Shown: in pieces, positions 3,733-20,369 of the stretch
Layout: the number at the start of each line of letters is the position of its first letter
Numbering within the stretch: the stretch's first letter is position 1
Source of the DNA: Vulcanimicrobium alpinum
GTDB taxonomy: Bacteria > Vulcanimicrobiota > Vulcanimicrobiia > Vulcanimicrobiales > Vulcanimicrobiaceae
Reading direction: 5' to 3'
Length of the DNA stretch: 24,000 bases
Assembly: GCF_027923555.1 (NCBI RefSeq)
Contig: NZ_AP025523.1
Span: forward strand, 1,716,484 to 1,740,483
Position numbers and translations under genes: made by a program
Notes under the pieces: generated by a model
What the model was told of the DNA's origin: nothing
What the model saw: the letters and a program-made list of their open reading frames with translations, nothing else
Databases searched by the model: none

Positions 3733-4521
3733 TCAGGCCGTCTCTCCCGCAGGAACTTCGCTGCCGCGCTCGCGCAGGAGCGTGTAGCCGCCGGCGGTGC
3801 GCACGGCGAGGTGCGCGTGTGCGGCGTCGGCGGCGATCGTCGTGTTGAGCAGGGTACGGGCGAGCGCGTCGTCGACGCCGTCGATGGCGAGGATCGCGTC
3901 GACCTTCACCTCCTCAAGCAGCGGTCCGGCGACGTACGCCGCATTGGGGAGCGTCTCGAACAGTCGCTCCTCGTACGGCGCGTCGCGCCACGGGCCCCGT
4001 TTCCCGAACACGGTCGCATGATAGTCCCACGCGCACAGGCGGCGTTCGTTCCACACGAAGTGATCGCGCACGCAGGTCCGGCGGCAGATCGCGCACTGCA
4101 CGAGCGATTCCGGTGCGTGCGTGAGCGCGTCGAGGATATCGTCGGGAAGATCGTCGACGTTGACGACGTTCTCGTCGGTGAGCGCTTCGGGGACGGCCGC
4201 TTCCCAGCCGATGCGCGCGAGCAGATCGAGTTCGCGCAACGATGAGACGAACGATCGCTCGTCGGCGGGATCGAACGTCTGATCCGTCCAGCCGGCGAGG
4301 TTGTCCGCGGCGATGCCGACGCGCTGCCAGTTCTCGCCCAAAACGACGCCGATCGGCGTCCAGGCGAGCGGGACGAGCCACGCCGTGACCTGGCGATTCT
4401 CCGGTACCAGGCTCGACGTGAATGCAAGCGTGCTCGCATTGCCGCCGAGGATGTAAGCGCGAGGATCGCTCGCCAGCTCGCCGTTCATCACTCGCGTCCG
4501 TACGTCGGACGCGCGGATCAT
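3733..4521 (-). CDS. Hypothetical protein with a C-x2-C-x3-C-x12-C cluster; function unknown
   Basis: The track ORF is 3733-4806, but its first ~95 codons are Arg-rich and lie antisense to the His-rich gene. I trimmed it to the ATG at 4521 (MIRASDVRTRVMNGELASD...); the ATG at 4488 is an alternative. The rest has coding-like composition and contains CAICRRTCVRDHFVWNERRLC. I recognise no family. Its stop overlaps the possible CTG start of the PBP. Confidence 0.5.
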   Translation of the reverse strand: MIRASDVRTRVMNGELASDPRAYILGGNASTLAFTSSLVPENRQVTAWLVPLAWTPIGVVLGENWQRVGIAADNLAGWTDQTFDPADERSFVSSLRELDLLARIGWEAAVPEALTDENVVNVDDLPDDILDALTHAPESLVQCAICRRTCVRDHFVWNERRLCAWDYHATVFGKRGPWRDAPYEERLFETLPNAAYVAGPLLEEVKVDAILAIDGVDDALARTLLNTTIAADAAHAHLAVRTAGGYTLLRERGSEVPAGETA

Positions 4522-4613
4522 CCCCCCCAGTGCAGGCAATCCGCGCCCTCGAACGATCGATGATCCGAAGCGGCGCGCCTGGGATTTCGAGAACGGTCGT
4601 CGAAGGCAAACGT

Positions 4614-4811
4614 ATGTCAGAGGAGCATCGGCATCCCCACGAACACGCGGACGGAGTCGTCCACGAGCACGGGCACTCGCACGGCGACCCGGATCATCAG
4701 CACGAACACGGCGCGCACGCGCATGAACATACCCATCCCGATGGCACGACCCACGAACACGAACACGGACACGAGCCGGAACATCAGCACGCGCACCCGC
4801 AGCCACATTAG
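4614..4811 (+). CDS. Small histidine-rich protein (65 aa, 23 His), putative metal (Ni) binding/storage protein
   Basis: The ATG at 4614 is preceded by GAAGG 8-13 nt upstream. The product is MSEEHRHPHEHADGVVHEHGHSHGDPDHQHEHGAHAHEHTHPDGTTHEHEHGHEPEHQHAHPQPH, almost entirely H-x-H / H-E-H dipeptide repeats with acidic residues. It has no signal peptide. The composition resembles Hpn-type and HypB/SlyD-tail His-rich metal binders. Confidence 0.6.
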   Translation: MSEEHRHPHEHADGVVHEHGHSHGDPDHQHEHGAHAHEHTHPDGTTHEHEHGHEPEHQHAHPQPH

Positions 4812-4841
4812 CTCGTGGGCCGCCTCAAGGGGTCCGGTGCG

Positions 4842-5144
4842 ATGGGGCCGACGCGGTCCACGCGCCTTCCGATCGCGCTCGACAAGTGGCTCGAATCGCG
4901 CCTGATGCTGCACCGCGATCGCAGCGTCAGCGACATCTTGCTGCAGCTGATTCACGGCGGCCTGCGTTTGCGCGAAGGATACATGGCGATTCATCGCCGG
5001 GCGCTCGAGGAGCTGATCGCCGGTGAACCCTGCGCCTATGATGCCTACCGCGCCTGTCTCCTCGACACTTTCGGCGTGGAGTACGTCACGCATCTGGATC
5101 GCTGGCTCGAAGCCGACGACGTGGTGAAAACGACTACGATATAG
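4842..5144 (+). CDS. Ribbon-helix-helix (CopG/Arc/MetJ-like) DNA-binding protein
   Basis: The ATG at 4842 has AAGGGG 9 nt upstream; the track's GTG at 4815 has no SD. The N-terminus PTRSTRLPIALDKWLESRLMLHRDRSVSDILLQLIHGGL fits a beta-strand/helix/helix RHH layout. It starts 31 nt after the His-rich gene on the same strand. Confidence 0.5.
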   Translation: MGPTRSTRLPIALDKWLESRLMLHRDRSVSDILLQLIHGGLRLREGYMAIHRRALEELIAGEPCAYDAYRACLLDTFGVEYVTHLDRWLEADDVVKTTTI

Positions 5145-5226
5145 ACAGTCTCCGGCGCCGGATCGACCGTTGGATCCGATGTGCTAGCGTCCTGTCGGCG
5201 CGCGCATTCGTCGGGGAGGTCGATCG

Positions 5227-7410
5227 TTGCCGCTGCTCACTGCGTTTTTCGCCGCCGTCATGGTCGCAGCGGCGGCAACGTCGCAAAGTCCGGGCGCGCC
5301 CCCGTCGCCGACCCTAAGTGCCTCCCCCTCGCCGGTCCCCAGCCCTAGCCCCTCCCCCGCAGCCTCGAACCTGCGAACGATCGGGACCGTGCAGGCGCGC
5401 GGCCGGATCGACAACCTCATCGGGGTCGCGTCGTCAGCCGCCGAGGGCTTCGTGGGTCATTCGGAACTCGAGGAACGTCCGATCCTGCGTCCTGGGGAGT
5501 TGCTCGAAACGGTGCCCGGCGTCGTGATCTCACAGCATTCCGGCGAGGGCAAGGCCAATCAATACTACTTGCGGGGCTTCAACCTCGATCACGGGACCGA
5601 CATCGCGATCACCATCGGCGGCGTCCCGGCCAACATGCGCACGCACGCGCACGGCCAGGGGTACTCCGACGTCAACTGGTTGATCCCCGAAACGGTGAAC
5701 TACGTGAACTTCCGCAAGGGGACGTACCACGCCGCCGACGGCGATTTTTCGACCGCCGGCGCGGTCGAGATGACATACTTCAACGTGTTGCCGCACGACT
5801 TGGTCAGCGTGAACGGCGGACCCTACGGTCAAGCGCGAATCCTGCTCGCACGCTCGCCGAGCGTCGGCCCGCAAACCCATCTTCTCTATGCTCTCGAATA
5901 TCAGCACGCCGACAATACGGCGCTCGAGCCGGACAACTACCGCAAATTCAACGGACTGGTGCGCTGGAGCCGTCAGGACGGGGACGCGCTCTGGGGGATC
6001 ACTGCGCAGGGATATCAGGCGAACTGGATGTCGTCAGATCAAATTCCTCTGCGCGCCGTGCAGAAAGGCCTGATCGATCGTTTCGGGCAAATCGATCCGA
6101 CGGACGGCGGTCGAACGCACCGTTACGTGCTCTCCGGCGACTATACGAGCGACGACGCTCGATCGACCACGCGCTTCGGTGCGTACGCGATGGACTACGG
6201 CCTGCACCTGTTCTCCGACTTCACCTATTTCTTGAACGATCCCGTGAATGGGGATCAGTTCAATCAAAACGATCAGCGGCTCGTGCTCGGCGCGAACCTG
6301 AGCCGCACCTGGAAAACGCCGGTCGCAGAGAACACGATCGGCTATCAGTTCCGCAACGACAATATCACCCCCGTCTCGCTGATGCTTTCGCGCGCGCAGC
6401 GCGTGATCGGGACCACCAGGATCGATCACGTCGTCGAGACCAGCAACGGCGTCTATCTTCAGACGGCGCAACATCTCTCCAAGCGCCTTCGCATGACGGC
6501 GGGCTTGCGAGCAGATGAATTCCGCTTCCGCGTCACGGACCTTCGCCCGCAGAATTCCGGCGACGTTTCCGCGTCGATTCTCAGCCCGAAGCTCGCGTTC
6601 GCCTACACGGCCGGCCGAACGATGGAATTGTACGCGGATTTCGGCACGGGTTTCCATAGCAACGACGCACGTGGGATCACCGAGCGCGTCGACCCGGGAA
6701 CCGGATCGATTACGGACCCGGGAAGCGGTCAAATCGTCGAGGGCGCGACGCCCCTGGTCCGCGCCCAAGGAGCGGAGATCGGCGCGCGTTTTGCGTTCGG
6801 TCAAAAGGTGCGTTCCACGTTTTCTCTTTGGAACTTGAACCTCGCCTCCGAACTCGTCTTTCAGGGTGATGCAGGGACCACGTCTCCGGGCCGCCCGAGC
6901 CACCGCTTCGGCGTCGAAGTTGCAAACTTTTGGGAACCTGCGCCCGGCATCACCTACGATTTCGATTACGCGTCGTCGGCGGCGAAGTTCACCAACTTCG
7001 ATCCGGTCGGCAGCCTGATCCCCGGATCGATCAAGGACGTTCTTACCATCGGCGCCACCGCAGAGGGCCGCCGGGCGTTCGGCAGCCTGCGCGTACGCTA
7101 CTTCGGCCCGCGTCCCCTGATCGAAGCCGGCACCGTGCACTCCAACCCCACCACGACCATCAACGTGCAGGCCGGGGTGAAGCCGACCGGTACGACGCGT
7201 TTCGGAATCGATGTCTTCAACCTACTCAACGCGAAGGCGAGCGACATCGACTACTATTACAACTCGTCCCTGCCGAGCGACCCGGCATACACCAAACCGG
7301 GCTATGCCGGGCCTTGTCCGATCGACCAATGCGGGGCCGGCGTCCCGGACGTGCATTTCCACCCGATCGAGCGGCGCCTGCTGCGGCTGACCTTCACGAA
7401 GACGTTCTAG
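5227..7410 (+). CDS. TonB-dependent outer-membrane receptor
   Basis: 727 aa. GGGGAGG lies 7 nt upstream of the TTG start. It has a signal peptide and a Pro/Ser-rich linker. The plug-domain motifs are present (ELLETVPGVVISQHSGEGKANQYYLRGFNLDHGTDIAITIGGVPANMRTHAHGQGYSDVNWLIPE...NFRKGTYHAADGDFSTAGAVEM). A long beta-barrel-like region of alternating residues follows, and the C-terminus LRLTFTKTF ends in an aromatic residue. Confidence 0.85.
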   Translation: MPLLTAFFAAVMVAAAATSQSPGAPPSPTLSASPSPVPSPSPSPAASNLRTIGTVQARGRIDNLIGVASSAAEGFVGHSELEERPILRPGELLETVPGVVISQHSGEGKANQYYLRGFNLDHGTDIAITIGGVPANMRTHAHGQGYSDVNWLIPETVNYVNFRKGTYHAADGDFSTAGAVEMTYFNVLPHDLVSVNGGPYGQARILLARSPSVGPQTHLLYALEYQHADNTALEPDNYRKFNGLVRWSRQDGDALWGITAQGYQANWMSSDQIPLRAVQKGLIDRFGQIDPTDGGRTHRYVLSGDYTSDDARSTTRFGAYAMDYGLHLFSDFTYFLNDPVNGDQFNQNDQRLVLGANLSRTWKTPVAENTIGYQFRNDNITPVSLMLSRAQRVIGTTRIDHVVETSNGVYLQTAQHLSKRLRMTAGLRADEFRFRVTDLRPQNSGDVSASILSPKLAFAYTAGRTMELYADFGTGFHSNDARGITERVDPGTGSITDPGSGQIVEGATPLVRAQGAEIGARFAFGQKVRSTFSLWNLNLASELVFQGDAGTTSPGRPSHRFGVEVANFWEPAPGITYDFDYASSAAKFTNFDPVGSLIPGSIKDVLTIGATAEGRRAFGSLRVRYFGPRPLIEAGTVHSNPTTTINVQAGVKPTGTTRFGIDVFNLLNAKASDIDYYYNSSLPSDPAYTKPGYAGPCPIDQCGAGVPDVHFHPIERRLLRLTFTKTF
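7407..7410. repeat. Target-site duplication CTAG, left copy, of the IS5-family insertion
   Basis: CTAG directly abuts the IS terminus at 7411. An identical CTAG abuts the other terminus at 8729-8732. The TAG of this copy is the stop codon of the TonB-dependent receptor. Confidence 0.75.
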
Positions 7411-8728
7411 CAGGCCCGTGAAAAAATCGGCGCGTGGTTCGCGAACTGCCCGTTCAGCACGGTTTTCGGGAGGTCGGCGGACCTCTCGAAGCCCGTTGCC
7501 GAGCGGTTCATCTCGAAAACGCCCCCTCGGGTCAGCATCACTTCGCATCATGTCGCGGCCCTCAGATTGCGTATCCTGATCAAGTTGTACGCCGCGGCCG
7601 TCCAGCGCACAATGTCGCCGACCAGATCAAGCCCGCGGAAATGCACCTTGCGCAATCGGCCGATCGTCTTGCCCCACCCGAAGCTCTCCTCGATCAACCT
7701 GCGCCTGCGTTGACTCACCGTGTAGCCCGGATGGCGGATGGTTCGGCGGTCGATCGCGCTGCGGCGACGGGTCGTATTTTGAGCAACGTGCGGCGTCACG
7801 TTGAGCGCTCGCAACGCCTCGACAAAGTCTTTGGTATCGTACGCCTTGTCGGCACCGAGCGTGATTCGGTTGCTTCCGCTGACCCCGCGAATCAATTCCA
7901 GCGCTGCTTCGCGTTCGGCGATCCCGGTCGCGCGAGTGGTCTTCACGCCGACTATCAAGCCGTTGCGATTCTCCATCAGAGCATGTCCGAGATAGCCGAG
8001 AATCGCCGGCGCGCCGCTGCTCTTGCGGTACAACCGCGCGTCCGGATCGGTACTCGAGACGTGCGTCTCGTTGCTGCGCGGCCGGCCACGAAAGTTCACG
8101 CCCTCGTTGCGACCGCCGCTCGAGGTCGGCGGTTCGTCGTCCGACTTGGGCCGAAAGCTCTTGTGGCTGGCCCACGCCTCGATTAGCGTCCCATCGACGG
8201 TGAAATGCTCGTTCGAGAGCAGTTCGTCGGCACGCGCCCGCTCGACCACGGCGGCGAAGAACCGCTCGGAGATTTCGCCATTCAAGAACCGATCGCGGTT
8301 CTTGCTGAACGTCGAGGGGTCCCAGATCTTGTCGTCCATGCTCAAGCCCACGAACCAACGAAAGAGCAAATTGTAACGCAACTGCTCCAGCAGCATCGGC
8401 TCGCTGCGGATCGAGTAGAACATTTGCAACAGCAAGGCTCGCAGCAGCTTCTCCGGCGCGATCGATGGCCGGCCCCGTCGGGAGTAGAGCTTGGAGAACT
8501 CCGGCGAGAGTTCGCGCAGAATTTCGTTGACCATCGCGCGCATCGGGCGCAACGGATGATCGGCGGGCACGGTGTCTTCCGGCTGCAACGTCGTCCAAAC
8601 GGATGCACGCTGCTCATCATGAGTCCGCATCGGCCTCAACCTCACCAAGGTATGAGGAGACTTGCTCTTATAATACGCGAAAAACGCCGTCACGCCAACA
8701 TCAACTCGGCCGATTTTTCATCAGCCTG
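7411..8728 (-). mobile_element. IS5-family insertion sequence (1318 bp) with imperfect terminal inverted repeats
   Basis: The termini are CAGGCCCGTGAAAAAATCGGC (7411-) and, reverse-complemented from 8728, CAGGCTGATGAAAAATCGGCC. It contains a single DDE transposase ORF, is flanked by a CTAG direct repeat, and looks locally lower in GC than its flanks. Confidence 0.85.
7548..8630 (-). CDS. IS5-family DDE transposase (InsH-type N-terminal domain plus DDE_Tnp_1 catalytic domain)
   Basis: RGRPSIAPEKLLRALLLQMFYSIRSEPMLLEQLRYNLLFRWFVGL matches the IS5 transposase N-terminal domain. The catalytic-domain sequences DGTLIEA, GADKAYD and RRRLIEESFGWGK are typical of IS4/IS5-type transposases. I prefer the ATG at 8630 (MRTHDEQ..., GGTGAGG upstream) over the track's GTG at 8693. 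Confidence 0.88.
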   Translation of the reverse strand: MRTHDEQRASVWTTLQPEDTVPADHPLRPMRAMVNEILRELSPEFSKLYSRRGRPSIAPEKLLRALLLQMFYSIRSEPMLLEQLRYNLLFRWFVGLSMDDKIWDPSTFSKNRDRFLNGEISERFFAAVVERARADELLSNEHFTVDGTLIEAWASHKSFRPKSDDEPPTSSGGRNEGVNFRGRPRSNETHVSSTDPDARLYRKSSGAPAILGYLGHALMENRNGLIVGVKTTRATGIAEREAALELIRGVSGSNRITLGADKAYDTKDFVEALRALNVTPHVAQNTTRRRSAIDRRTIRHPGYTVSQRRRRLIEESFGWGKTIGRLRKVHFRGLDLVGDIVRWTAAAYNLIRIRNLRAAT

Positions 8729-9861
8729 CTAGACGGAGCGGTCATTTCGTGCGCGCCGTGGCAGCCGTGCTGCATCGGGTGCGCGCGATCGAGCAGCCAG
8801 AGGTAGACCGCGAGCGCGCCGAACGCCAGGTTGAGCCAGAACGTGTAGTTGAACGCGAACATCGTGAGATCGTGCCGGATGTTCGGATTGGGCTTGGGGA
8901 CGAGATGCAGCGCCGAGAACGCGCCGTCCATCACGATCGCGGAGAACGCCATCGTCGTAAAGAAGATCGCGAAGATGTACAGCGCCATGCGCAGGCCGTA
9001 ATAGCGCCGGTACACGTCGAGCAGCGGGAGCACGATCAGGTCGGCGTAGAGAAATGCGAGCACGCCTCCGAACGAGATCCCGCTCGTCCACAGCACTGCG
9101 GCAAGGGGGACGTTGCCGATCGAGCAGACGAACGAGAGGATCGCGATGACCGGTCCGATGATCGCATTTCCGACGGTCTGCACCGCCGGCGGCGCGCCGT
9201 GCAGAAAGAGCCGCGTCCACGCGCCGTCGGGGACGAACGCCGCCAGCGCGCCGGCGATGAGGAACCCGCCCAGCAGATCCTTCCACAGCATCGAGACGTC
9301 CATGCTGAAGTTCTGCGCGATCGCGATCCGCGTCTCCGGACTGCGCAGCCGCTCCGCAAGCGACGCACCTTCGCCTTCCATCGAACCGTGATCGTGGCCG
9401 GTCGCTTCGTCGACGTGACGGCGCGCCTCGTCGACCAGCGCCTTCGGATAGGTGAGCTTCACCAGCACGGTCATCACGGCGATCAAGATAAGGCCGCCGA
9501 TCCACTCCGCCGCGGTGAACTGCCAGCCCATCAGCAGCCACAGCACGATCCCGAGTTCGATCACCAAGTTCGTCGAGGAGAACAGGAATGCCAGGCTCGG
9601 AACGAGCGCCGCGCCTTTCTTGAAGAGGGTCTTGCTCATCGCGGCGGCCGCATACGAACACGACGAGCTCGCCGCGCCGAACCCCGTCGCGATCGCGATC
9701 TCCCGCACGCCGGCGCGGCCGAGCAGGTTTTGCATCCGCTGCTTCGAGACCAGCGCCTGCACCGCGCCTGAGAACGCAAAGCCCAGGACGAGGCTCCAGC
9801 CGACCTGCCACGCCATTCCGAGCGCCAGCAGCAGCGCTTCGCCCAGCTTCGCGACGAGCAT
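8701..9861 (-). CDS. Polytopic membrane permease of the PF03773 / COG0701 (ArsP/YraQ-like 'predicted permease') type, with His-rich loop and tail; its last 9 codons and stop come from the IS
   Basis: 386 aa with many hydrophobic segments. Paired intramembrane Cys motifs (GAASSSCSYAAAAM and SFVCSIGNVPLAAVLW) are characteristic of this permease family as I recall it. The cytoplasmic loop reads DEATGHDHGSMEGEG and the tail reads HPMQHGCHGAHE. The ATG overlaps the csoR-like stop by 1 nt (TGATG). The 3' end (8701-8728) lies inside the IS5 terminal repeat. Confidence 0.7.
   Translation of the reverse strand: MLVAKLGEALLLALGMAWQVGWSLVLGFAFSGAVQALVSKQRMQNLLGRAGVREIAIATGFGAASSSCSYAAAAMSKTLFKKGAALVPSLAFLFSSTNLVIELGIVLWLLMGWQFTAAEWIGGLILIAVMTVLVKLTYPKALVDEARRHVDEATGHDHGSMEGEGASLAERLRSPETRIAIAQNFSMDVSMLWKDLLGGFLIAGALAAFVPDGAWTRLFLHGAPPAVQTVGNAIIGPVIAILSFVCSIGNVPLAAVLWTSGISFGGVLAFLYADLIVLPLLDVYRRYYGLRMALYIFAIFFTTMAFSAIVMDGAFSALHLVPKPNPNIRHDLTMFAFNYTFWLNLAFGALAVYLWLLDRAHPMQHGCHGAHEMTAPSSRLMKNRPS
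8729..8732. repeat. Target-site duplication CTAG, right copy, of the IS5-family insertion
   Basis: Identical to 7407-7410 and directly abutting the IS terminus at 8728. Confidence 0.75.
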
Positions 9862-10169
9862 CAGACGAGGTCTTTCTGGAAGTTCAGCGTCTCCATCAGT
9901 TCAGCGACGGCGTCGCGTCCTTCGCCCGCCCGGACCTGCTCGACGAAGCAGGTCGCGACGTGGTTCTCCAGCATGATGCGCGCGACGCGGTCCAGGCTCG
10001 CGCGCGCGGCGGAGATCTGCTTGACGACCTGCATGCAGTAGACGTTGTCGTCGACCATCCGGTAGATCCCGTCGGTGACGCCGCGGATCGTCTTGAGCCG
10101 GTTGAGTACGTCGGCTTTGCGCTGCGGATCGAGGCTGCTGGTTTTGGGACGGGAAGCTTTGCGGGGCAT
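9861..10169 (-). CDS. csoR: CsoR/RcnR-family (DUF156) metal-sensing transcriptional repressor with an x-C-H-C (CsoR-type) ligand signature
   Basis: I trimmed the track ORF to the ATG at 10169 (MPRKASRPKTSSLDPQRKADVLNRLKTIRGVTDGIYRMVDDNVYCMQVVKQISAARASLDRVARIMLENHVATCFVEQV...). Cys45, His70 and Cys74 have the same +25/+29 spacing as Cys36/His61/Cys65 of M. tuberculosis CsoR. There is no N-terminal His, which RcnR/InrS types have. Confidence 0.8.
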   Translation of the reverse strand: MPRKASRPKTSSLDPQRKADVLNRLKTIRGVTDGIYRMVDDNVYCMQVVKQISAARASLDRVARIMLENHVATCFVEQVRAGEGRDAVAELMETLNFQKDLV

Positions 10170-10179
10170 CGTACCCCGC

Positions 10180-10226
10180 ACATTACCACACCCCCACCCC
10201 CGGTGTCTACCACACCGGGGGTGGGG
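10180..10226 (-). promoter_or_regulatory. Candidate csoR-family operator (perfect 15-bp inverted repeat of G/C tracts) overlapping a candidate extended -10 promoter
   Basis: CCCCACCCCCGGTGT (10192-10206), the spacer CTACC, and ACACCGGGGGTGGGG (10212-10226) form perfect reverse complements. On the minus strand, TAGACA (10209-10204, 5/6 to TTGACA) is followed by an 18-nt spacer and then TGgTAATGT (-10 at 10185-10180). The -10 ends 10 nt before the ATG. No T-tract follows the palindrome, so it is not a typical intrinsic terminator. Confidence 0.5.
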
Positions 10227-10237
10227 TAGCGTCCGTT

Positions 10238-10871
10238 CTAGCCGAGCTTCCCGGTATAGCCTTCCATGAGGCCCCATGCGGTGTCGCCGAACTCTTTCTT
10301 CCAGCGCGCGTAGTAGTCGGCGAGCTTTGCCTTCATCGCGGCGCGATCGGCGGCGGCGACCTCGTTCACGGTCATCCCTTGGCTCTTGAGCTTCACGACG
10401 AGAGAGTCATTGAGCTTTTGAATGTCGGAGCGCTGACGCTCGGCGACCTTGACGGCGTTACGCGAGACGACGTCTTGCAAGTTCGTCGGGATTGCCTTCC
10501 ACCAGTCGCCGTTGGCGAGCAGCCAGTACCCGCCCCACATGTGGGAGCTCAGGCTGAGGTACTTCTGCACTTCGAAGAAGCGCGCGAACTCGATGTTCGC
10601 GAGCGGGTTTTCCTGACCATCGACGACGTGCGTCTGCAGCGACGTATAGAGCTCGCTGAAGTTCATCGCGACGGGCGCGGCGCCGAGCGACTTGAAGAGG
10701 TCCAGGGCGAAGCGGCTGTTCGGCGTGCGGATCTTCATCCCGGAGAGGTCGGCGAGATTGTGCACGGGTTTCCCGCCGGAGGTGATCTGGCGCATCCCGT
10801 TCTCCCAGATCTTTTCGAATGGGTGGATGTCTTTCTTCGAGATCTCGTCGCGGACGTAGGCGCCCCCCCCG
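10238..10871 (-). pseudogene. dctP: TRAP-transporter solute-binding protein (DctP family), C-terminal fragment, cut off by the IS3-family insertion
   Basis: Translation reads ...GGGAYVRDEISKKDIHPFEKIWENGMRQITSGGKPVHNLADLSGMKIRTPNSRFALDLFKSLGAAPVAMNFSELYTSLQTHVVDGQENPLANI...WGGYWLLAN..., typical of DctP. The reading frame runs straight into the IS terminus at 10872 with no start codon of its own, apart from an internal Met. Confidence 0.8.
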
Positions 10872-11013
10872 TGTCAAGATAGAGTGGTACCGGTAGCATA
10901 GGGAGTTTTTTGTACAACGTTCGTCGCAGCAGCAGAGCTGTGGATAACGGGGATACTGTGGAAAACATCCGGAACGATGCAAAGCACGCGGGGGCGAGAA
11001 AGTCCTGCAACAG

Positions 11014-11433
11014 ATGCAGTCCTCGAACGGAACCGTTTCAACGGAAATCAAGGCAACCAGTTCACCCCAAAAACCTCAGCGACGTCGGTTCTCCGCCGCC
11101 GAGAAGCTGCGCATCGTGCGCGAGGCTGATGCGCGTCCAGCCGGCACGATCGGAGCGTTTCTCCGGCGCGAAGGTATTTACTCATCGCAGCTCTATGCCT
11201 GGCGAAGGCAGCGCGATCAAGGCGACCTCGATCCAGGTGCGGTGCGCCAACGTGCAAAAGCCAAAATGCAAGCCGACGAGGTTGCGCAGCGGCTCAAAGA
11301 ACTCGAGCGGGAAAACCGGAAACTCCGTCGCCAGTTGGCGCGCGCCGAGCTCATAAACGATATCCAAAAAAAATTTGCGGGGCTCCTGGGCGTCGATCTG
11401 GAGAGCCCCGAGACGAACGAGAACGCAGAATGA
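11014..11433 (+). CDS. IS3-family transposase OrfA (HTH DNA-binding plus coiled-coil)
   Basis: RRRFSAAEKLRIVREADARPAGTIGAFLRREGIYSSQLYAWRRQ is a typical IS3 OrfA helix-turn-helix. It is followed by a leucine-zipper-like region, LKELERENRKLRRQLARAEL. Confidence 0.85.
   Translation: MQSSNGTVSTEIKATSSPQKPQRRRFSAAEKLRIVREADARPAGTIGAFLRREGIYSSQLYAWRRQRDQGDLDPGAVRQRAKAKMQADEVAQRLKELERENRKLRRQLARAELINDIQKKFAGLLGVDLESPETNENAE
11367..11373 (+). other. Programmed -1 ribosomal frameshift slippery heptamer A_AAA_AAA for the OrfAB fusion transposase
   Basis: An A8 run lies at 11366-11373. In the orfA frame the codons are caa aaa aaa ttt, so A-AAA-AAA is in X-XXY-YYZ phase. I translated the -1 frame from 11373 (ICGAPGRRSGEPRDERERRMSAAL...) and found no stop before the orfB ATG at 11430. 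Confidence 0.65.
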
Positions 11434-12434
11434 GTGCGGCGCTGGAACTTGCCCACGAGATTCCGCAGCGCGCGTTGTGCACTGCAGCGGGCATCAGCCG
11501 CTCGACGCTGCGGCGCCGCCTAAACGGCACGCCGGAACGACTTCCGTCCGTGATCTCGCGCCGGCGCTCGAGAAGAGCACTGAGCGAACACGAGCAAGCT
11601 GAGGTGCTCGCGGTGCTGCATGGCGAGCGGTTTGCCGATCGCGCGCCGGCGACGATCCACGCGACCTTGCTGGACGAAGGTATCTACCTGTGCTCGGTGA
11701 GCACGATGTACCGCCTGCTGCGAGCAAACGCGGAGGTGCGCGAACGTCGCCGTATTGCACGTCATCCGGAGTACCGTAAGCCCGAACTGGTGGCCACCGG
11801 TCCGCGTCAAGTTTTCTCGTGGGATATCACGAAGCTGCGCGGCCCGCACCCGGGTGAGTGGTTCTCGCTGCTGGTGATGCTCGACATCTTCAGCCGGTTT
11901 GTCGTCGGCTGGATGCTCGTGCATCGGGCCAACGCCGAACTCGCACGGCACTTCATCGCGCAGACGCTGGAACGTGAAGGCATCCAGCCCGGGCACGCGA
12001 TCGTTCACGCCGATCGCGGCGCGGAGATGACGGCGCAACCCGTGTGCGCCCTGATGGACAAGCTCGGCGTCGTACGTTCGCACAGCCGTCCGCACGTTAG
12101 CGACGATAACCCCTTCTCGGAGTCCCAGTTCCGCACGCTGAAGTACCATCCCGAATTCCCCGATCGATTTGGGTCGTTTGAGCACGGGCACGATTTCGTT
12201 GGTGAGTTCATGACCTGGTACAACAACGAGCACCGGCACTCCGGAATCGCGATGCTGACGCCGGCAATGGTGCATCACGGCCAGGCGGACCGCGTGCTCG
12301 CCGCCAGACACGACGTGATGCTCGCGGCTTACCGCGCCAAACCGGAACGATTCATCGGCGGATCGCCAAAGCGGATCGTGTTACCGCCCGCGGTGTGGAT
12401 AAATCCGCCCGCTCACGACGGGGTCGCCGTGTAG
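11430..12434 (+). CDS. IS3-family transposase OrfB (rve integrase-core, DDE)
   Basis: The DDE candidates lie in SWDITKL, VHADRGAEM and SRPHVSDDNPFSESQFRTLKY. The WYNNEHRHSGI motif is typical of IS3 OrfB. The ATG overlaps the orfA stop (ATGA), and the frame is -1 relative to orfA. Confidence 0.9.
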   Translation: MSAALELAHEIPQRALCTAAGISRSTLRRRLNGTPERLPSVISRRRSRRALSEHEQAEVLAVLHGERFADRAPATIHATLLDEGIYLCSVSTMYRLLRANAEVRERRRIARHPEYRKPELVATGPRQVFSWDITKLRGPHPGEWFSLLVMLDIFSRFVVGWMLVHRANAELARHFIAQTLEREGIQPGHAIVHADRGAEMTAQPVCALMDKLGVVRSHSRPHVSDDNPFSESQFRTLKYHPEFPDRFGSFEHGHDFVGEFMTWYNNEHRHSGIAMLTPAMVHHGQADRVLAARHDVMLAAYRAKPERFIGGSPKRIVLPPAVWINPPAHDGVAV

Positions 12435-14146: not shown

Positions 14147-14913
14147 TCCGGCTCGAACGCCGAACCTCGGCCATCGCGTGGGCGATCGTCGACCGACCGC
14201 AGGCGCGCAACGCGATGACGTTCGCGATGTGGGACGAGCTGCACGCGATCGCGCGCAGACTGCGCAACGACCGCGAACTGCGCGTGCTGGTGATCGCGGG
14301 CGCGGGCGGGAAGGCGTTCGTTTCAGGGACCGACATTGCTGGATTTCGCGGTTTCACCGCCGAGGACGGCGTCGCGTACGAAGCGCGGATGGACGCCGTC
14401 ATCGGTGCGGTGGAAGCGCTCGACGTTCCCGTGGTCGCCGCGGTGGCCGGCGCGTGCACGGGCGGCGGGGTCGCGCTCGCGGCGGCCTGCGACGTGCGCA
14501 TCGGCGCGAGCTCCGCGCGCGTCGGCGTCCCGATCGCGCGCACGCTCGGGAACGTGCTTTCGCTGGCCAACATCATGCGCGTCTCGGGCGTCGTCGGCAG
14601 CGACGCGGTGAAGGCGATGCTGGTCACCGCGGAGCTGCTCGATGCGGAGTCGGCGCTGCGGACCGGGTTCTTTCACGAACTCGTCGACGACGCGCAGCTC
14701 GACGCGCGGGCGGCGGAACGCGCCGAGACGATCGCGGCGCTCGCGCCGCTGACGTTGCGGCTGACGAAAGCGGGGATGCGCCGGCTGCGCGCCGCCGTAC
14801 CGATCCCCGACGACGGCGACCTGATCCGCGCCGCCTACGGCAGCGCGGATTTCGCCGAGGGCGTCGACGCCTTCATCGCTAAACGCGCGCCCCGCTGGAC
14901 CGGCTCAGGGTGA
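14143..14913 (+). CDS. Enoyl-CoA hydratase/isomerase (crotonase superfamily)
   Basis: DRPQARNAMTFAMWDELHAIARRL...RVLVIAGAGGKAFVSGTDI...PVVAAVAGACTGGGVALAAACDVRI...DFAEGVDAFIAKRAPRW are crotonase-fold motifs. The GTG start overlaps the CoA-transferase stop (GTGA). Confidence 0.88.
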   Translation: MIRLERRTSAIAWAIVDRPQARNAMTFAMWDELHAIARRLRNDRELRVLVIAGAGGKAFVSGTDIAGFRGFTAEDGVAYEARMDAVIGAVEALDVPVVAAVAGACTGGGVALAAACDVRIGASSARVGVPIARTLGNVLSLANIMRVSGVVGSDAVKAMLVTAELLDAESALRTGFFHELVDDAQLDARAAERAETIAALAPLTLRLTKAGMRRLRAAVPIPDDGDLIRAAYGSADFAEGVDAFIAKRAPRWTGSG

Positions 14914-16260
14914 GAGCGCGGCGAGTCGGGTGCGGGCGTCGTCGGCGTAGGCGGGGTGGAACGACGGGTTCAGCGCGAGCGCGCGCTGGAGTCGTGCGGC
15001 CGCCGTCGCACGGTCGCCGAAGTGCAGGGCGATGATTCCGGCGTGATAGTCGAGCAGCGCGTTCTCCGTCCGCAGACGTAACGCGCGTACGCTGCGCGCG
15101 CGCGCCTCGTCCCATTTGCCGTCCATCGCCGCCGCCCAGGCGAGTGTGTCGTCGGTGAAGATGTCGTCGCGAACGGCAAGGTCGGCGCGTGCGATTCGGT
15201 ATGCGTCGTCTGGGCGCTCGCGATGTTCCGCGTAGTAGATCGCCAGTAGACGGTCGGAGACGTGTTGGGCGTTCCCGATGCGCTCGACGGTACGGATCAG
15301 ATCGTCGGTTCGCTCTGCGGCCGCGGCGTCGCCGAGCGCGCGCTGCGCGTCCACCTCGTACCCTAGCACCTCGGGATACGGCACGACGGCCGCCGAGGCG
15401 TTGGCCGCGTCGAGGCACGCTTGCCAACGGTGCAGCGCACAGGTGACGCGCGCGAGCATCCGGTTGGCTTCGGAGTAGTCCGGAAAGATCGCGAGCGCAC
15501 GCTGTTCGTCCGCGACCGCCGCGTCGTTCTCGCCCGCTTCGAACGCCAGCTCCCCGCCGCGGAACCAGAACCAGGCGCGCTGCTGCGCAGGCTCGTCGTA
15601 GCGCGCGTCGACCGCGGCGGCCGTGCGCGCGAAACGTTCGCGCGCCCGTGCGAGGTGCCCGGTGAGCTCGTCGTAGCGTGCGAACAGCGTATCAAGGGCG
15701 ACGCGGACGTCATCCCCGCCGCGCCTTCCGTCGAGTCGGCGGAGCTGCGCGACGAGGCGCGCAGCATCGTCGTAGCGGCCGAGTTCGAGATCGATCGACG
15801 CCTCGCGGATCGCCATCGCGGGATCGCCGGGCTGCAGCCGCCCCAGGTGTTTGGTCACCGCGAGCGCGTCGCGGAACCGGTGCAGCGCGACGTATGCGGA
15901 CGCGAGCGCAACCTCCGCGTTCACGTTGCCGTAAGGCTGCGCACGCAGCGAACGCTGCGCGGCGTGCACGGCGCGGACGACGTCATCGATGTCTGCGCGC
16001 TCGCGATAGCGCTGCAGGTACTGTCCCGACAACTGCACGGGGCTGAGCATATCGCCCCGCAGGTGCTGGTCGGCAGCGCGCTCCCAGAACGCGATCGTCC
16101 GGTCGCGATCGCGGTAGTCGGCCGTCACCGGTGCGGGTCGCGGAAGCGCAGCGGCGCGCGCCGCGTTTTGGCGTGCATTGATGTACCACGGCCACGCGGC
16201 GACCGCTCCCAGAGCGATCGCCGCGATGGACCACATGAGCGCCGTCGAGTAACGGTTCAT
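14905..16260 (-). CDS. Membrane-anchored tetratricopeptide-repeat (TPR) protein
   Basis: 451 aa. An N-terminal hydrophobic anchor (ALMWSIAAIALGAVAAWPWYI) is followed by repeated ~34-aa helical units rich in A/L/Y/R (e.g. ALASAYVALHRFRDALAVTKHLGRLQPGDP, RALAIFPDYSEANRMLARV, ARLQRALALNPSFHPAY). It is the last gene of the DUF4331-like train. Confidence 0.65.
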   Translation of the reverse strand: MNRYSTALMWSIAAIALGAVAAWPWYINARQNAARAAALPRPAPVTADYRDRDRTIAFWERAADQHLRGDMLSPVQLSGQYLQRYRERADIDDVVRAVHAAQRSLRAQPYGNVNAEVALASAYVALHRFRDALAVTKHLGRLQPGDPAMAIREASIDLELGRYDDAARLVAQLRRLDGRRGGDDVRVALDTLFARYDELTGHLARARERFARTAAAVDARYDEPAQQRAWFWFRGGELAFEAGENDAAVADEQRALAIFPDYSEANRMLARVTCALHRWQACLDAANASAAVVPYPEVLGYEVDAQRALGDAAAAERTDDLIRTVERIGNAQHVSDRLLAIYYAEHRERPDDAYRIARADLAVRDDIFTDDTLAWAAAMDGKWDEARARSVRALRLRTENALLDYHAGIIALHFGDRATAAARLQRALALNPSFHPAYADDARTRLAALSP

Positions 16261-16280
16261 GCCGTGGTGCCTACCGCCCG

Positions 16281-16922
16281 TCAGTGCGGCGGGGAGAGGT
16301 ACGGGAAGGACGAGATCTTCGCCTGGCTCGGATTCTGACTAACGTTTTCCGCGCTCAGGCAGTTGTTCTCTTCGCCGTCGTCGGGTACGACCTTCAGCGC
16401 GCTCAGCGTCTTGCCGAACAGCGCGCCCAGCGAGATGTTCACGACGTCGTCGCCGATATCGCGGCCGCCGAACTTGCCGCCGGTCGCGCCGCCGGTCTCA
16501 ACGCCGAGATACGACGCGCTGTCGGTGGACGAGAGGTCGACGGTGTACTCGTTGGGATAGAGAATCGACGCCAGCGTCTTGCCGTAGTCGGTACCGAGTG
16601 CCGCATTCGGGGGACGCACGGTGTCTTCGAACTTGACGATCGCGTTGGGCAGCGGATCGGCCGCCGCGCCGGCGTACGGTTCGACGGCGTTCGTCGTCTT
16701 GTGGTCGACGAAGTTCTCGAAGACCTCTTTGATCGCCGGACGCGCGAGGAGTTCTATCTGCACGTACGACTGGGTCGATACGGTCGGGTTCGACGGGAGC
16801 GGCGACGCGAACGGGTTCGGTCCGGTGTTGAACGGCGGCGGCGTAACCGAACCGCCGTTGCACGCGGCGAGCGCGACGCAGAGGCTGCCCGCAGCGGCGA
16901 GTGTGGCGATGGACTTCTTCAT
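16281..16922 (-). CDS. Lipoprotein resembling the C-terminal half of DUF4331 proteins
   Basis: The lipobox is MKKSIATLAAAGSLCVALAAC|NGG. GGRDIGDDVVNISLGALFG and the C-terminal FPYLSPPH match what I recall as the conserved C-terminal motifs of DUF4331 (GGR-x-x-DDVVD..., FPYL-x-x-P). AGAGG lies 10 nt upstream of the ATG. Confidence 0.55.
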   Translation of the reverse strand: MKKSIATLAAAGSLCVALAACNGGSVTPPPFNTGPNPFASPLPSNPTVSTQSYVQIELLARPAIKEVFENFVDHKTTNAVEPYAGAAADPLPNAIVKFEDTVRPPNAALGTDYGKTLASILYPNEYTVDLSSTDSASYLGVETGGATGGKFGGRDIGDDVVNISLGALFGKTLSALKVVPDDGEENNCLSAENVSQNPSQAKISSFPYLSPPH

Positions 16923-16935
16923 CTGCTGTCGACCT

Positions 16936-17829
16936 CTATGATCCGGTCGACGAGTTCGTCGTCGCCCACACGTGGATGGTGGAACTGGAATATCCCGTCG
17001 TCAGCAGTGAACGCGGCACTTCGACCACGAACGCCAGGACGTTGAAGCCGCCGCCGAGATCCGTCAGCGTGTTCTGCGGTGCGTTCGTGCTGCAGGCGTA
17101 GTTGCCCAGCGCCGAACCGGCGCCCGCGGTCGTCCCCGCTTTGAAGCCGTTGAACGTCGGCTGCGCCGGGTTCGCGGACTTATCGTACGCCGGAGCAAAC
17201 GCGGCCGCGGCGCCGGCGTTGTCGCCGTTGAAAAGCGGTCCGCTCGCCGCCGGACCGGGATCGGTCTGCGAGGAGTGCGTGGCGTAGTTGCGGTCACCGA
17301 GGAACGAGAACAGGGCGAAGAGGTCGAGGTAGAACGGATCGGCGCGCGGACCGGCAAAGACCTTGATGCCGTTCGCGAGTTGCGTCGCCGTGTTGTAGTT
17401 GAACGTGCCGCCCGGGGTAACGAATGTGTTCGCTGTCCCCACTTCATTGGGCTTCGCCGGACCGTACAGCGTCAGCGTCTGCGAGGCGCCGGTCCCGTTC
17501 GCGCCGAACTGGATCACTTGATCTTCCGGCGACGCGCCGGTGCCGTGCGCGATCTTGAACTGCCACATCAGCGTGGGATCGAAGAATTTCGACGTCCCCA
17601 TCCCGGCGGGGATGAGCGGCGAAACGTCCATGACGAACACGACGTTGTTCGCGTTGGTCGGGGATGGAAACACGAAGACGTCGGTGATGTCGGCCGACGT
17701 ATTCGAACGGGTCGCGAGGTTGTAGGTGTCTTGGTGGTCGGAGCTCCGCACCGGGTGCGCGGTGTAGAGCACGGCGGCCGCGGCGACGGCCAGAACCGTC
17801 AACGAACCAAGAATCCGCCGGTTGATCAT
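16936..17829 (-). CDS. Secreted DUF4331-like protein (N-terminal/core half)
   Basis: I trimmed the ORF to the ATG at 17829, which has GAGAGGAA upstream. The signal peptide is MINRRILGSLTVLAVAAAAVLYTAHPVRS. It is followed by SDHQDT...ADITDVFVFPSP...VFAGPRADPFYLDL...GFNVLAFVVEVP. These match the SDH-x-D, D-x-TD-V-Y/F-x-F, AGPRDDPFF and NVLAIVLEVP-type motifs I associate with DUF4331. Confidence 0.6.
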   Translation of the reverse strand: MINRRILGSLTVLAVAAAAVLYTAHPVRSSDHQDTYNLATRSNTSADITDVFVFPSPTNANNVVFVMDVSPLIPAGMGTSKFFDPTLMWQFKIAHGTGASPEDQVIQFGANGTGASQTLTLYGPAKPNEVGTANTFVTPGGTFNYNTATQLANGIKVFAGPRADPFYLDLFALFSFLGDRNYATHSSQTDPGPAASGPLFNGDNAGAAAAFAPAYDKSANPAQPTFNGFKAGTTAGAGSALGNYACSTNAPQNTLTDLGGGFNVLAFVVEVPRSLLTTGYSSSTIHVWATTNSSTGS

Positions 17830-17938
17830 GCGGTGGTTCCTCTCGGGGCGATCAGGATGCAAATGAGACGTGATTCCCACGTAGTCTACATTAAAGACGA
17901 GTGTGAACTGAGGCCGGATTGCCCAGGATAGGGGTAAA

Positions 17939-18748
17939 TCACACCTTTTCCGCCGCCATCTGCTCGCTCAGCGGCTCCGCGACGCGTCGCGTCCCGACGA
18001 AAACGACGGCAAATACCGCGAGCAAGACCGCCACGAGTACCAGACTTACGACCAGATCGGAAACGGGGGAGCGCCAGCCGAGCTGTTGGGCGAGTTCGTA
18101 GGCGGCGACCGCGATCGCCAGTCCCGTGACCGAACCGATCCAGACGCGCATCACCGCGGGCAAACGGGCCGAACGGTGGGAAACCAAGCGATGGACGAGC
18201 ACGGAGTCGAGCGTGTCGGTGCAGATCATCCCGGCGGAGAACATCGCCCCGACCAGAAGCGCCCCGCCGATACCTGCGGTGCCGAAGACGAGAACGTATG
18301 CGGCGATCTGGCTGGAGGTCTCGAACCCGAACCCGAAAAGGAGTCCGATTGGCAACGCCAGCAACGCGCTCGAGCCCTCGCGCAGCCGCTTCGGCAAGAG
18401 GCGCGTTTTCGCGCCCGCTATGCGTTCGCCGCCGCGCACGAGCGTACGCACGTTCAGCGCGGCAATTGCAAGCAGGACGCCGATCGACACCCAGGTGCCG
18501 ATCGTTTCGATCAACGCTCCATGGGCGGCGAACCGCGCGCCGAGCAAACCGACAAGCACCGAGATCGAGAGGACCATGACGGAGTGTCCGCCCGCGAAGA
18601 GCGTGCCGACGAAGCGGCTTAAAAGCGGCGTCTTCACGTACGCGTTCCGCGTCACGTTGTCGATCGCCGCGATGTGATCGGGATCGGCGCCGTGGCGAAG
18701 CCCGAGCACGAACACCGTGAAAGCGCTGACTCCAAGCGCTCCGATCAT
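17939..18748 (-). CDS. Short (269 aa) HoxN/HupN/NixA-signature (NiCoT-like) nickel/cobalt permease
   Basis: I trimmed the ORF to the ATG at 18748; the upstream part of the track ORF is Arg-rich and overlaps the preceding gene. LRHGADPDHIAAIDNVTR matches the NiCoT TM-II signature H-A-x-D-A-D-H-I-x-A-I-D-N. FAGGHSVMVL matches G-H-S-x-V-V, and FGFGFETSSQIA matches L-G-F-D-T-A-T-E. About seven hydrophobic segments are visible by eye. The ATG overlaps the upstream stop (ATGA). Confidence 0.75.
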   Translation of the reverse strand: MIGALGVSAFTVFVLGLRHGADPDHIAAIDNVTRNAYVKTPLLSRFVGTLFAGGHSVMVLSISVLVGLLGARFAAHGALIETIGTWVSIGVLLAIAALNVRTLVRGGERIAGAKTRLLPKRLREGSSALLALPIGLLFGFGFETSSQIAAYVLVFGTAGIGGALLVGAMFSAGMICTDTLDSVLVHRLVSHRSARLPAVMRVWIGSVTGLAIAVAAYELAQQLGWRSPVSDLVVSLVLVAVLLAVFAVVFVGTRRVAEPLSEQMAAEKV

Positions 18749-20322: not shown

Positions 20323-20369
20323 GCTGATCCTCACGACGAACTGCGCTCTACCCCTTTCAACGGTCGTTC

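Follow-up and report, generated by a model that had tools for sequence, protein, structure and literature searches.

Histidine-rich proteins for the cytoplasmic binding and storage of nickel include Hpn and Hpn-2 of Helicobacter pylori and the His-rich N-terminus of HypB (e.g., in Bradyrhizobium japonicum), which serve urease or hydrogenase maturation. Hpn contains poly-His runs and Cys pentapeptides (EEGCC), and Hpn-2 is rich in Gln. NikR is a ribbon-helix-helix (RHH) nickel repressor with palindromic operators at nikABCDE, nixA and frpB4/fecA3, the half-sites of which lie 11–16 bp apart, and P22 Mnt combines an RHH fold with a C-terminal helical tetramerisation domain. In H. pylori, the receptors FrpB4 and FecA3 together with NixA represent nickel TonB transporters with a NiCoT permease. 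NikH and other predicted nickel receptors are listed in PMC11247825. The locus described here lies in a window of 24,000 nucleotides (nt) of the Vulcanimicrobium alpinum genome (contig NZ_AP025523.1, positions 1,716,484 to 1,740,483) with a G + C content of 67%, to which all positions below refer. It consists of a gene for a small protein with a histidine motif (His protein, 65 amino acids, aa) and a gene for an orphan protein of 109 aa, with a gene for a TonB-dependent receptor further downstream. The first two genes are real, conserved, coupled to each other and associated with nickel/cobalt importers, and a 15-bp palindromic box exists at an operator-like place. We consider it probable that they form a unit, restricted to Eremiobacterota, for the control of nickel (or nickel/cobalt) uptake.

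The His protein resembles Hpn and HypB in its small size, its His content of 35% and its context of nickel import and hydrogenase genes. It differs in being unrelated by sequence and free of Cys and poly-His, whereas a strictly spaced H-x-H...A-D-G...H-x-H is kept across the phylum. Furthermore, its gene is coupled to that of a putative regulator, and in some cases the two are fused, an arrangement that is not known for Hpn. The 109-aa protein is comparable to NikR as a small putative regulator beside nickel importers, with conserved His/Cys and a palindromic box before TonB receptors and nickel permeases. In contrast to NikR, it matches neither RHH_1 nor NikR_C in Pfam, its AlphaFold2 (AF2) model contains only helices after residue 38 and is not ACT-like, the half-sites of the box are 6 bp long and 3 bp apart, and it has a separate His-motif partner. 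With Mnt and Arc it shares, by pattern, an N-terminal strand (xRSxRLP), a helix, an 'RSVS[DE]IL' helix and long C-terminal helices, at an hhalign probability of at most 2% and with no Foldseek match; Arc and Mnt differ in having no metal connection. The Mnt operator is a short palindrome with GTCCAC/GTGGAC-like half-sites, which may resemble the box.

The product of the His gene (MSEEHRHPHEHADGVVHEHGHSHGDPDHQHEHGAHAHEHTHPDGTTHEHEHGHEPEHQHAHPQPH, 7.5 kDa) contains 23 His among its 65 residues, 14 Asp/Glu and no Cys, and no signal peptide was seen by inspection of the sequence. Its core motif, H-x-H-x-H-[AL]-D-G-[VIT]-x-H-x-H-x-H-x-H-x-D-[HP]-[DE]-H-x-H-x-H, is followed by a second, looser HxDGxxHxH repeat. 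A direct repeat of 47 nt inside the gene (4636-4682/4750-4796) shows that the protein is an internal duplication of a HxH-x-DG-xx-HxHxHGH unit. The gene is preceded by a purine-rich Shine-Dalgarno-like element, and R-A-R is enriched at positions -12 to -10 upstream of the 44 orthologues; this element also explains the 'CGAA..TTCG' mini-palindromes near -12. The previous description of this DNA from the letters alone (the sequence-only reading) as a 65-codon, His- and Asp/Glu-rich open reading frame (ORF) with H-x-H patterns and a well-placed start and Shine-Dalgarno sequence is accurate. No family match for the protein was found in Pfam or NCBIfam.

The composition alone cannot decide whether this ORF is a gene, since the G + C content at third codon positions (GC3) is higher in the annotated antisense frame (0.91) than in the His frame (0.69) and most orthologues have other frames open as well. 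Where contigs match the window exactly, the automatic (Prodigal-type) calls contain a 63-aa antisense ORF (4617-4808, minus strand; L071:2776-2967) and the His ORF is uncalled, so that the exact His protein is missing from the protein collection. The codon statistics of the 44 orthologues are decisive. The ratio of nonsynonymous to synonymous polymorphism (pN/pS) is 0.30 in the His frame compared to 1.60, 1.56, 1.54, 0.69 and 1.23 in the other five frames, with 1.54 belonging to the annotated antisense frame. The entropy of the three codon positions in the core region is 0.51/0.58/1.14, and only in the His frame is the variability of the third position twice that of the first two. Twelve positions of the 26-codon core, ten of them His and the other two Asp and Gly, do not vary among the 44 orthologues. 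The His ORF is a real gene and purifying selection acts on its protein; the sequence-only reading had named a lack of conservation, for example in a mere mirror image of an antisense ORF, among the findings that would defeat its proposal, and this objection fails.

The 109-aa gene starts at GTG 4815; ATG 4842 is internal, as can be seen from the N-terminus MxRxKGSGxMGPTRS, which the homologues keep. The gap between the His stop codon and this start is thus 3 nt instead of the 31 nt noted before. In total, 308 homologues at 90% clustering were found, and every named source is a metagenome-assembled genome (MAG) of the Eremiobacterota/Vulcanimicrobiota. An exhaustive profile search (hmmsearch) of 1.84 billion representatives resulted in 43 proteins, all of the own family save one or two borderline cases. 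Judged by these searches, the 109-aa protein is a lineage-restricted orphan. The invariant residues include R14, S15, R17, L18, P19, D23, H47, G49-R53, Y56, M57, H60, R61, Y78, D84, G87, H93 and W97, and C81 is conserved to 90%. The protein is strongly divided in charge: the predicted isoelectric point (pI) is 11.65 for residues 1–62, a half that carries seven invariant or near-invariant Arg, and 4.10 for residues 63–109. In the AF2 model of the monomer (pLDDT 76), residues 1–19 are disordered and helices are located at 20–32, 38–70, 72–86 and 88–100. The N-terminus shows an RHH-like pattern (TRSTRLP, a helix and an RSVSDIL helix) that resembles the strand-helix-helix of Arc/Mnt. A function as DNA-binding regulator appears rather probable. 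Two distant homologues (P0157 and P0162) were called with N-terminal extensions rich in T-N-T/T-R-T, which have the appearance of a His-rich ORF further upstream being read in a wrong frame and suggest that the pair extends beyond the core family.

To describe the spread of the pair, 57 genomic loci were collected via the 109-aa gene; locus counts are given out of 58. Under a strict automatic rule, 44 loci have a His-rich ORF that terminates directly ahead of the 109-aa gene; counted by eye, with fused, truncated and contig-cut copies included, the number rises to about 50 of 58. The distance from the His stop to the 109-aa start in the 44 loci is -1 in eight, 0–12 nt in 24 and 13–31 nt in nine, with a longer overlap in the remaining three. 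In 32 of the 44 loci the distance falls between -1 and 12 nt, consistent with translational coupling of the two genes. Natural in-frame fusions that join the 109-aa protein with a shortened His motif are present in P0042, P0059 (six members, several contigs) and L010, which share a common junction, and with a different junction in P0152. Other arrangements occur as well. The 109-aa gene lacks the His ORF in L011, L013, L016, L041, L050 and L057, the receptor gene is followed by the His gene with no 109-aa gene between in L060-62, the His gene precedes a NiCoT gene with no 109-aa gene between in L065, and in L063 a NiCoT gene precedes the His gene while the 109-aa gene is convergent. In addition, a metagenome scan with the His alignment gave at least three loci, a degenerate pattern being saturated.

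The conserved unit consists of the His protein and the 109-aa protein, not of a trio with the receptor as previously proposed, since only 10 loci have the receptor gene downstream and on the same strand; in the others it is convergent, divergent or missing. A look at relatives for His-rich ORFs beside TonB receptors, proposed as a check by the same reading, shows the receptor as a frequent neighbour in variable orientation. Two MAGs contain two paralogous pairs each. In CBDCCS01 (L025 and L056) each pair has its own downstream receptor, and in CAJCIN01 (L014 and L029) no importer is located within 6 kb; such paralogues may reflect different metals or metallophores. Literature searches revealed no description of the pair, the motif or the box.

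The neighbourhood of the pair points to nickel/cobalt acquisition. Within 6 kb, a homologue of the window receptor was found in 29/58 loci, a permease of the NicO/NiCoT family in 27/58, and either of them in 42/58. The NiCoT signature (H[AS]xDADH; H-x4-D-H in transmembrane segment 2; RHAVDADHISAIDN) is present in 22 loci. Genes for HypB, HypF or the small subunit of a NiFe-hydrogenase lie beside the module in five loci, including L045, where the receptor and NiCoT genes are followed by hypB. The window itself contains hypF and NicO genes, of which NicO1 matches PF03824/TIGR00802 below the cut-off. ZnuABC, ZIP, COG0523 and B12 genes were not found among the recurrent neighbours.

The receptor of the window starts 82 nt behind the 109-aa gene and has a signal-peptide-like N-terminus; the Plug and barrel matches and the strong Shine-Dalgarno sequence agree with what had been read from the letters. 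It scores only 14–47 bits against the NCBIfam models for siderophore, haem, B12 and PqqU receptors, the cut-offs of which are 223–1200, and no relative was found by sequence in the PDB. The plug motif (T/S)HAHGQGY(S/T)D is kept in all 26 of the 26 module-linked receptors that align there (38–100% identity) and may, as a speculation from this conservation, represent a direct metal-ion site. Orthologues with 71–74% identity share a strand with an adjoining NiCoT gene, at a distance of 54 nt in L027 and of about 560 nt in L001. The receptor thus resembles the nickel TonB transporters of H. pylori in its genetic linkage to NiCoT, with both genes on one strand and 39–131 nt apart in six loci, and in its putative control by a nickel regulator, but it belongs to a divergent subfamily by PDB sequence search, with the conserved plug motif THAHGQGYSD. 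The orthologues in L001, L006 and L027 carry an additional N-terminal domain, carboxypeptidase-regulatory-like by sequence pattern only (GxVxDxxGxPLPGAxVTLTG...FRFDxV), which is missing in the window copy.

The box, GTCTAC-N3-GTAGAC, was found via AT-rich repeats in the divergent receptor/109-aa intergenic regions of L041, L050 and L057 and via tandem repeats in L023, and it is located upstream of TonB receptor, NiCoT, NicO-like and CbiMN genes. Its frequency was determined in 658 kb, comprising the non-redundant loci and the window, and compared to the mean of 20 dinucleotide-preserving Altschul-Erickson shuffles. Nine sites without mismatch were observed (0 expected), ten with one mismatch (0.35 expected) and 34 with two mismatches (11.4 expected). 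An exact box lies, for example, at L043:3546-3560; the sequence GTCTACGTTGTAGAC likewise is an exact copy. Of the 19 best sites (≤1 mismatch), 18 precede a receptor, NiCoT, NicO-like or CbiM+PDGLE gene by no more than 400 nt; in L032, the box precedes a CbiM+PDGLE component of an energy-coupling factor (ECF) transporter, which is followed by an ABC ATPase. The nineteenth site, with one mismatch, lies in L009 (region 9538-12078) just downstream of a module-linked receptor, before a radical-SAM gene that is accompanied by a gene for a 401-aa HExxH protein; the two genes may belong to the same regulon as a set for a metallophore or for the modification of a peptide. Between the divergent receptor gene and the His ORF of L023, four tandem 15-nt repeats with the half-site GTAGACAAAT were detected (L023:5727-5791; TRF period 15, 3.7 copies), a putative direct-repeat version of the operator.

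In the window, four sites with at most two mismatches were counted compared to 0.27 expected. One of them, a candidate operator 81 nt ahead of the receptor start, overlaps the last codons and the stop codon of the 109-aa gene, and the matching position is occupied in L006 (one mismatch), L009, L015 and L025. It reaches 30.1 bits with a 25-nt matrix, which falls into the range of the training sites (19–40 bits). No intrinsic terminator was found between the 109-aa gene and the receptor gene. Due to its own candidate operator, the receptor is probably controlled separately from the pair rather than, as the sequence-only reading had assumed, simply co-transcribed with it. A weaker copy of the box is located 4 nt upstream of a DUF4331 gene (16936-17880, minus strand) downstream of the NicO genes; this gene may belong to the box regulon.

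Other candidate signals upstream of the His ORF were rejected. The inverted repeats TTCGAG-N8-GTCGAA and CGATCG, reported before as possible operators in 4522-4613, do exist there, yet are at chance level. The 8-mer AACGGTCG, shared with the receptor upstream region, occurs four times compared to 2.3 expected. An expectation-maximization (EM) motif search in 43 regions upstream of the His ORF reached at best 2.17 per sequence compared to 2.4–2.9 in the controls, with scattered sites, and generic palindrome counting in the same 43 regions gave no lead. The divergent intergenic region itself, given as 92 nt before, is 74–92 nt long, depending on whether the upstream gene starts at TTG 4539 (as called) or ATG 4521.

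A profile search from the side of the His protein showed that in other lineages the same motif forms the C-terminal tail of XRE-family helix-turn-helix (HTH) regulators of about 110 aa (P0132, P0136 and P0139-P0149; e.g., FHAHEHVHADGTRHTHPHGHSDPDHRHEHGDAG), with the 26-aa consensus HxHxHADGTRHxHPHGHxDPDHRHEH. In L067-L070 (e.g., L067:6001-7311), the XRE-His gene is located 28 nt upstream of a CDF (Cation_efflux) gene, and in L058 (1301-2844) it overlaps the start of a CzcB-like gene. These XRE-His proteins look like an uncharacterised family of metal-responsive regulators. Like the pair described here, they join the motif to a DNA-binding domain near metal transport genes; they differ in their HTH_3 domain, in their efflux neighbours (CDF, CzcB-like) and in the fused state of the motif, which here is a separate polypeptide beside uptake genes. 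Together, the fusions and the XRE tails indicate that the motif was repeatedly joined to DNA-binding proteins beside metal transporters. The motif also occurs in three proteins of 120–133 aa (P0130, P0134 and P0138), where three to five copies of HTHADGTxHTH stand in tandem ahead of a helical domain (LLKYMLDHNxHHAEEL; precomputed Pfam PF26551). Among the His proteins in general, two carry the JGI label 'HypB'. The features of the window are listed in Table 1.

Table 1. Positions and evidence of the features in the 24,000-nt window.
Feature	Position	Strand	Evidence
Shine-Dalgarno-like GAAGG (purine-rich) of the His-motif gene	4602..4606	+	read from sequence
Histidine-motif protein gene, 65 aa, 23 His (ATG 4614 to TAG 4811)	4614..4811	+	composition, orthologues, pN/pS
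109-aa orphan protein, putative DNA-binding regulator	4815..5144	+	conserved start, homologues, AF2 model
Candidate operator GACTAC-GAT-ATAGAC, 2 mismatches	5132..5146	.	box scan and matrix, 30.1 bits
Shine-Dalgarno GGGGAGG of the receptor	5213..5219	+	read from sequence
TonB-dependent outer-membrane receptor, 727 aa, start TTG 5227	5227..7410	+	Plug PF07715 7.9e-11, barrel PF00593 4.1e-19
Plug motif THAHGQGYSD, possible metal-ion site (receptor residues 138-147)	5638-5667	+	receptor alignment
DDE transposase	7548-8693	-	missing from the otherwise identical contig L071, where ArsP directly follows the receptor
Weaker box copy GTCTAC-ATT-AAAGAC	17884..17898	.	16.6 bits

In the favoured model of a nickel uptake control unit, the cytoplasmic His protein would bind a divalent metal, the basic N-terminal half of the 109-aa protein would bind the box before importer genes and its helical C-terminal half would oligomerise. 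The 109-aa protein is proposed as box binder because it is the only consistently co-located candidate DNA binder and because of the high pI of its N-terminal half. With sufficient nickel, the pair in its metal-loaded form, or just the 109-aa protein, would sit on the box and thereby repress the TonB receptor in the window and NiCoT, NicO-like and CbiMN importers in other genomes. Imported metal would be passed on or buffered by the His protein, which alternatively would serve as the regulator's detachable arm for metal sensing. Binding of a divalent metal by the His protein, which is almost certain, is here an inference from sequence, and so are the choice of metal, the contact of the 109-aa protein with DNA and the sign of the regulation.

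Several observations weigh against this model, first of all concerning DNA binding. No match for the 109-aa protein was found in Pfam, NCBIfam and PDB sequence profiles with the full length or the N-terminal 46 aa, and scans of 70 family members against Pfam and PHROG gave one to three weak RHH/Arc matches. RHH_1 (PF01402) matches one of the 70 members (E = 0.12) and not the window protein. The comparison by hhalign with manually entered sequences of Arc, Mnt, CopG and NikR gave probabilities of ≤2%; residues 5–39 of the N-terminal alignment A3 (about 14–48 of the protein) were placed on Mnt 8–41, which is not significant. A Foldseek search of the model against PDB and BFVD was without match, although the monomer is compatible with an RHH strand-helix-helix, so homology and fold provide no evidence that the protein binds DNA. 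The RHH label of the sequence-only reading fits the pattern and gains no support from these searches; it is plausible and unproven, with even chances of being right.

The link between box and protein is furthermore one of co-location only, since all loci were gathered via the 109-aa gene, and another regulator with a gene elsewhere in the genome could bind. The window copy of the box carries two mismatches, and its 30-bit score is partly circular as the closest relative L006 is contained in the matrix. In the window the His ORF has no box ahead of it, which gives no indication of autoregulation. An importer is absent within 6 kb in 16/58 loci, some of them on short contigs, and the XRE fusions adjoin efflux genes typical of Zn/Co/Cd, which means that the motif itself is not nickel-specific. 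The support as a whole comes from sequence and genome context. Of the nickel-acquisition reading proposed earlier, the nickel/cobalt importer context is retained (42/58 loci), whereas the trio and the operators in 4522-4613 are not; the RHH fold, a specificity for nickel over cobalt or zinc and a cytoplasmic buffer role are conjectural.

Among the alternatives, a split sensor survives best, even if it has to be regarded as doubtful. Here, the His protein would be no store or chaperone but the detachable metal-sensing subunit of a transcription factor made of two polypeptides; once loaded with metal, it would attach to the 109-aa protein and so control whether this binds DNA. The short gaps in 32/44 loci, consistent with translational coupling, speak for this, as do the distinct in-frame fusions (P0042/P0059/L010 and P0152) and the tails of the XRE-HTH regulators beside CDF or CzcB efflux genes. 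However, the His gene also lies beside NiCoT or receptor genes with the 109-aa gene distant, on the opposite strand or absent, six loci contain the 109-aa gene without a His ORF, and the invariant His47, His60 and His93 of the 109-aa protein could themselves be the sensor site.

Alternatively, the 109-aa protein might work with the His protein as a metallochaperone or adaptor, in which case an unlinked regulator such as NikR or a Fur-family protein would read the box. The missing homology or fold match to any DNA-binding family would agree with this, and conserved His/Cys in a helical bundle would fit metal handling. The strongly basic N-terminal half with its seven conserved Arg, the pattern and register like the Arc/Mnt strand-helix-helix (hhalign not significant) and the repeated position of the box immediately adjacent to the 109-aa gene make this unlikely. 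Similarly improbable is the same architecture with control of cobalt or zinc uptake instead of nickel uptake. NiCoT and CbiMN families transport cobalt as well as nickel, H/D/E-rich motifs without Cys bind zinc well, and the efflux genes of the CDF/CzcB type at the XRE fusions are typical of Zn/Co/Cd; on the other hand, hypB, hypF or NiFe-hydrogenase genes occur at five loci, hypF and NicO genes lie in the window, and the zinc and B12 genes searched for are absent among the recurrent neighbours.

A role of the His ORF as leader peptide for His-codon-dependent attenuation of the downstream gene, or as secreted peptide metallophore imported by the receptor, is already disfavoured and very improbable. 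The ORF is short, very rich in His codons and directly upstream of another gene, and in L060 the His gene follows the receptor gene. A leader of the his-operon type has consecutive His codons, alternative hairpins and his genes, whereas here the His residues alternate and Asp, Gly and the spacing are kept as strictly as His, at a pN/pS of 0.30. Neither a terminator/antiterminator nor an Rfam match (riboswitch or leader) was found, his genes are not nearby in the window and no link to them was seen. A signal peptide and a conserved exporter or maturation gene are lacking, and the fusions to a basic protein of cytoplasmic type argue for a cytoplasmic location. Finally, a spurious His ORF mirroring the antisense ORF, which the higher antisense GC3, the Prodigal-type calls and the open alternative frames would favour, is refuted by the frame-specific pN/pS and third-position variability, the 12 invariant columns and the presence of the motif in fusions and independently elsewhere.

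The other genes of the window include a PASTA kinase/PBP cluster, a transposase, ArsP and CsoR-like genes, an integrase, CoA-transferase/hydratase genes, a TPR-DUF4331-DUF4331-NicO-NicO-HypF string and an SIS protein gene. The divergent 262-aa gene (3733-4521) was considered as part of the module and rejected; it travels with the PASTA-kinase/PBP cluster in only six loci. On the minus strand (8701-10277), a gene for a 138-aa CsoR/RcnR-family repressor overlaps the start of a gene for an ArsP_1-family permease weakly similar to Cu/Zn efflux transporters. By family assignment, this pair, which is also located upstream of the module in L025, is a putative separate metal-efflux unit beside the uptake module. 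The string of NicO (RcnA-like, with a His-rich loop at about 19170-19360), NicO, two DUF4331 and TPR genes (14905-20457, minus strand) recurs as NicO-DUF4331-TPR beside the module in about nine loci, including L023, L028, L037, L041, L052 and L063, and DUF4331 may belong to nickel handling. A literature search on DUF4331 found no papers, and the literature on ZepA and zinc exoproteins, considered as a clue, revealed no link. Two mobile-element genes and a DctP gene are involved at 7548-8693 (minus strand), 10238-10795 (minus strand) and 11430-12434 (plus strand). The absence of the transposase from L071 points to a strain-polymorphic insertion, and the rve integrase adjoins a DctP gene without the first ~117 profile positions, which indicates a rearrangement of the region mediated by an insertion sequence (IS).

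Eremiobacterota are abundant in nutrient-poor soils, and according to published accounts many of them draw on trace gases by means of NiFe hydrogenases, which should make the supply of nickel important; we know of no work on nickel sensing and import in this phylum. What is absent from the annotation is a conserved His-motif protein, an orphan putative regulator and a 15-bp box that ties four classes of nickel/cobalt importers together. As a whole this resembles a nickel-uptake regulon made of orphan components that has not been described before. Gene calling in high-GC genomes may systematically go wrong for His-rich genes, the antisense frame having the higher GC3. Tentatively, the pair could even stand for an unrecognised class of metalloregulators, in which an orphan DNA binder, possibly a very divergent Mnt-like RHH protein, has its sensor in trans as a His peptide of 60–70 aa, the motif of which was independently captured by XRE efflux regulators. 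It would govern the nickel-import regulon of the Eremiobacterota (TonB receptor, NiCoT, NicO-like, CbiMN and DUF4331) via the box and hence the nickel for the high-affinity hydrogenases on which these oxidisers of atmospheric H2 depend. If the 109-aa protein binds the box in a metal-dependent manner, it would be a new metalloregulator family, and if the His protein is its sensor, this would be a new, split design of metal sensing. That XRE regulators carry the motif as well suggests that it is a portable module for metal sensing, which would be of more general interest.

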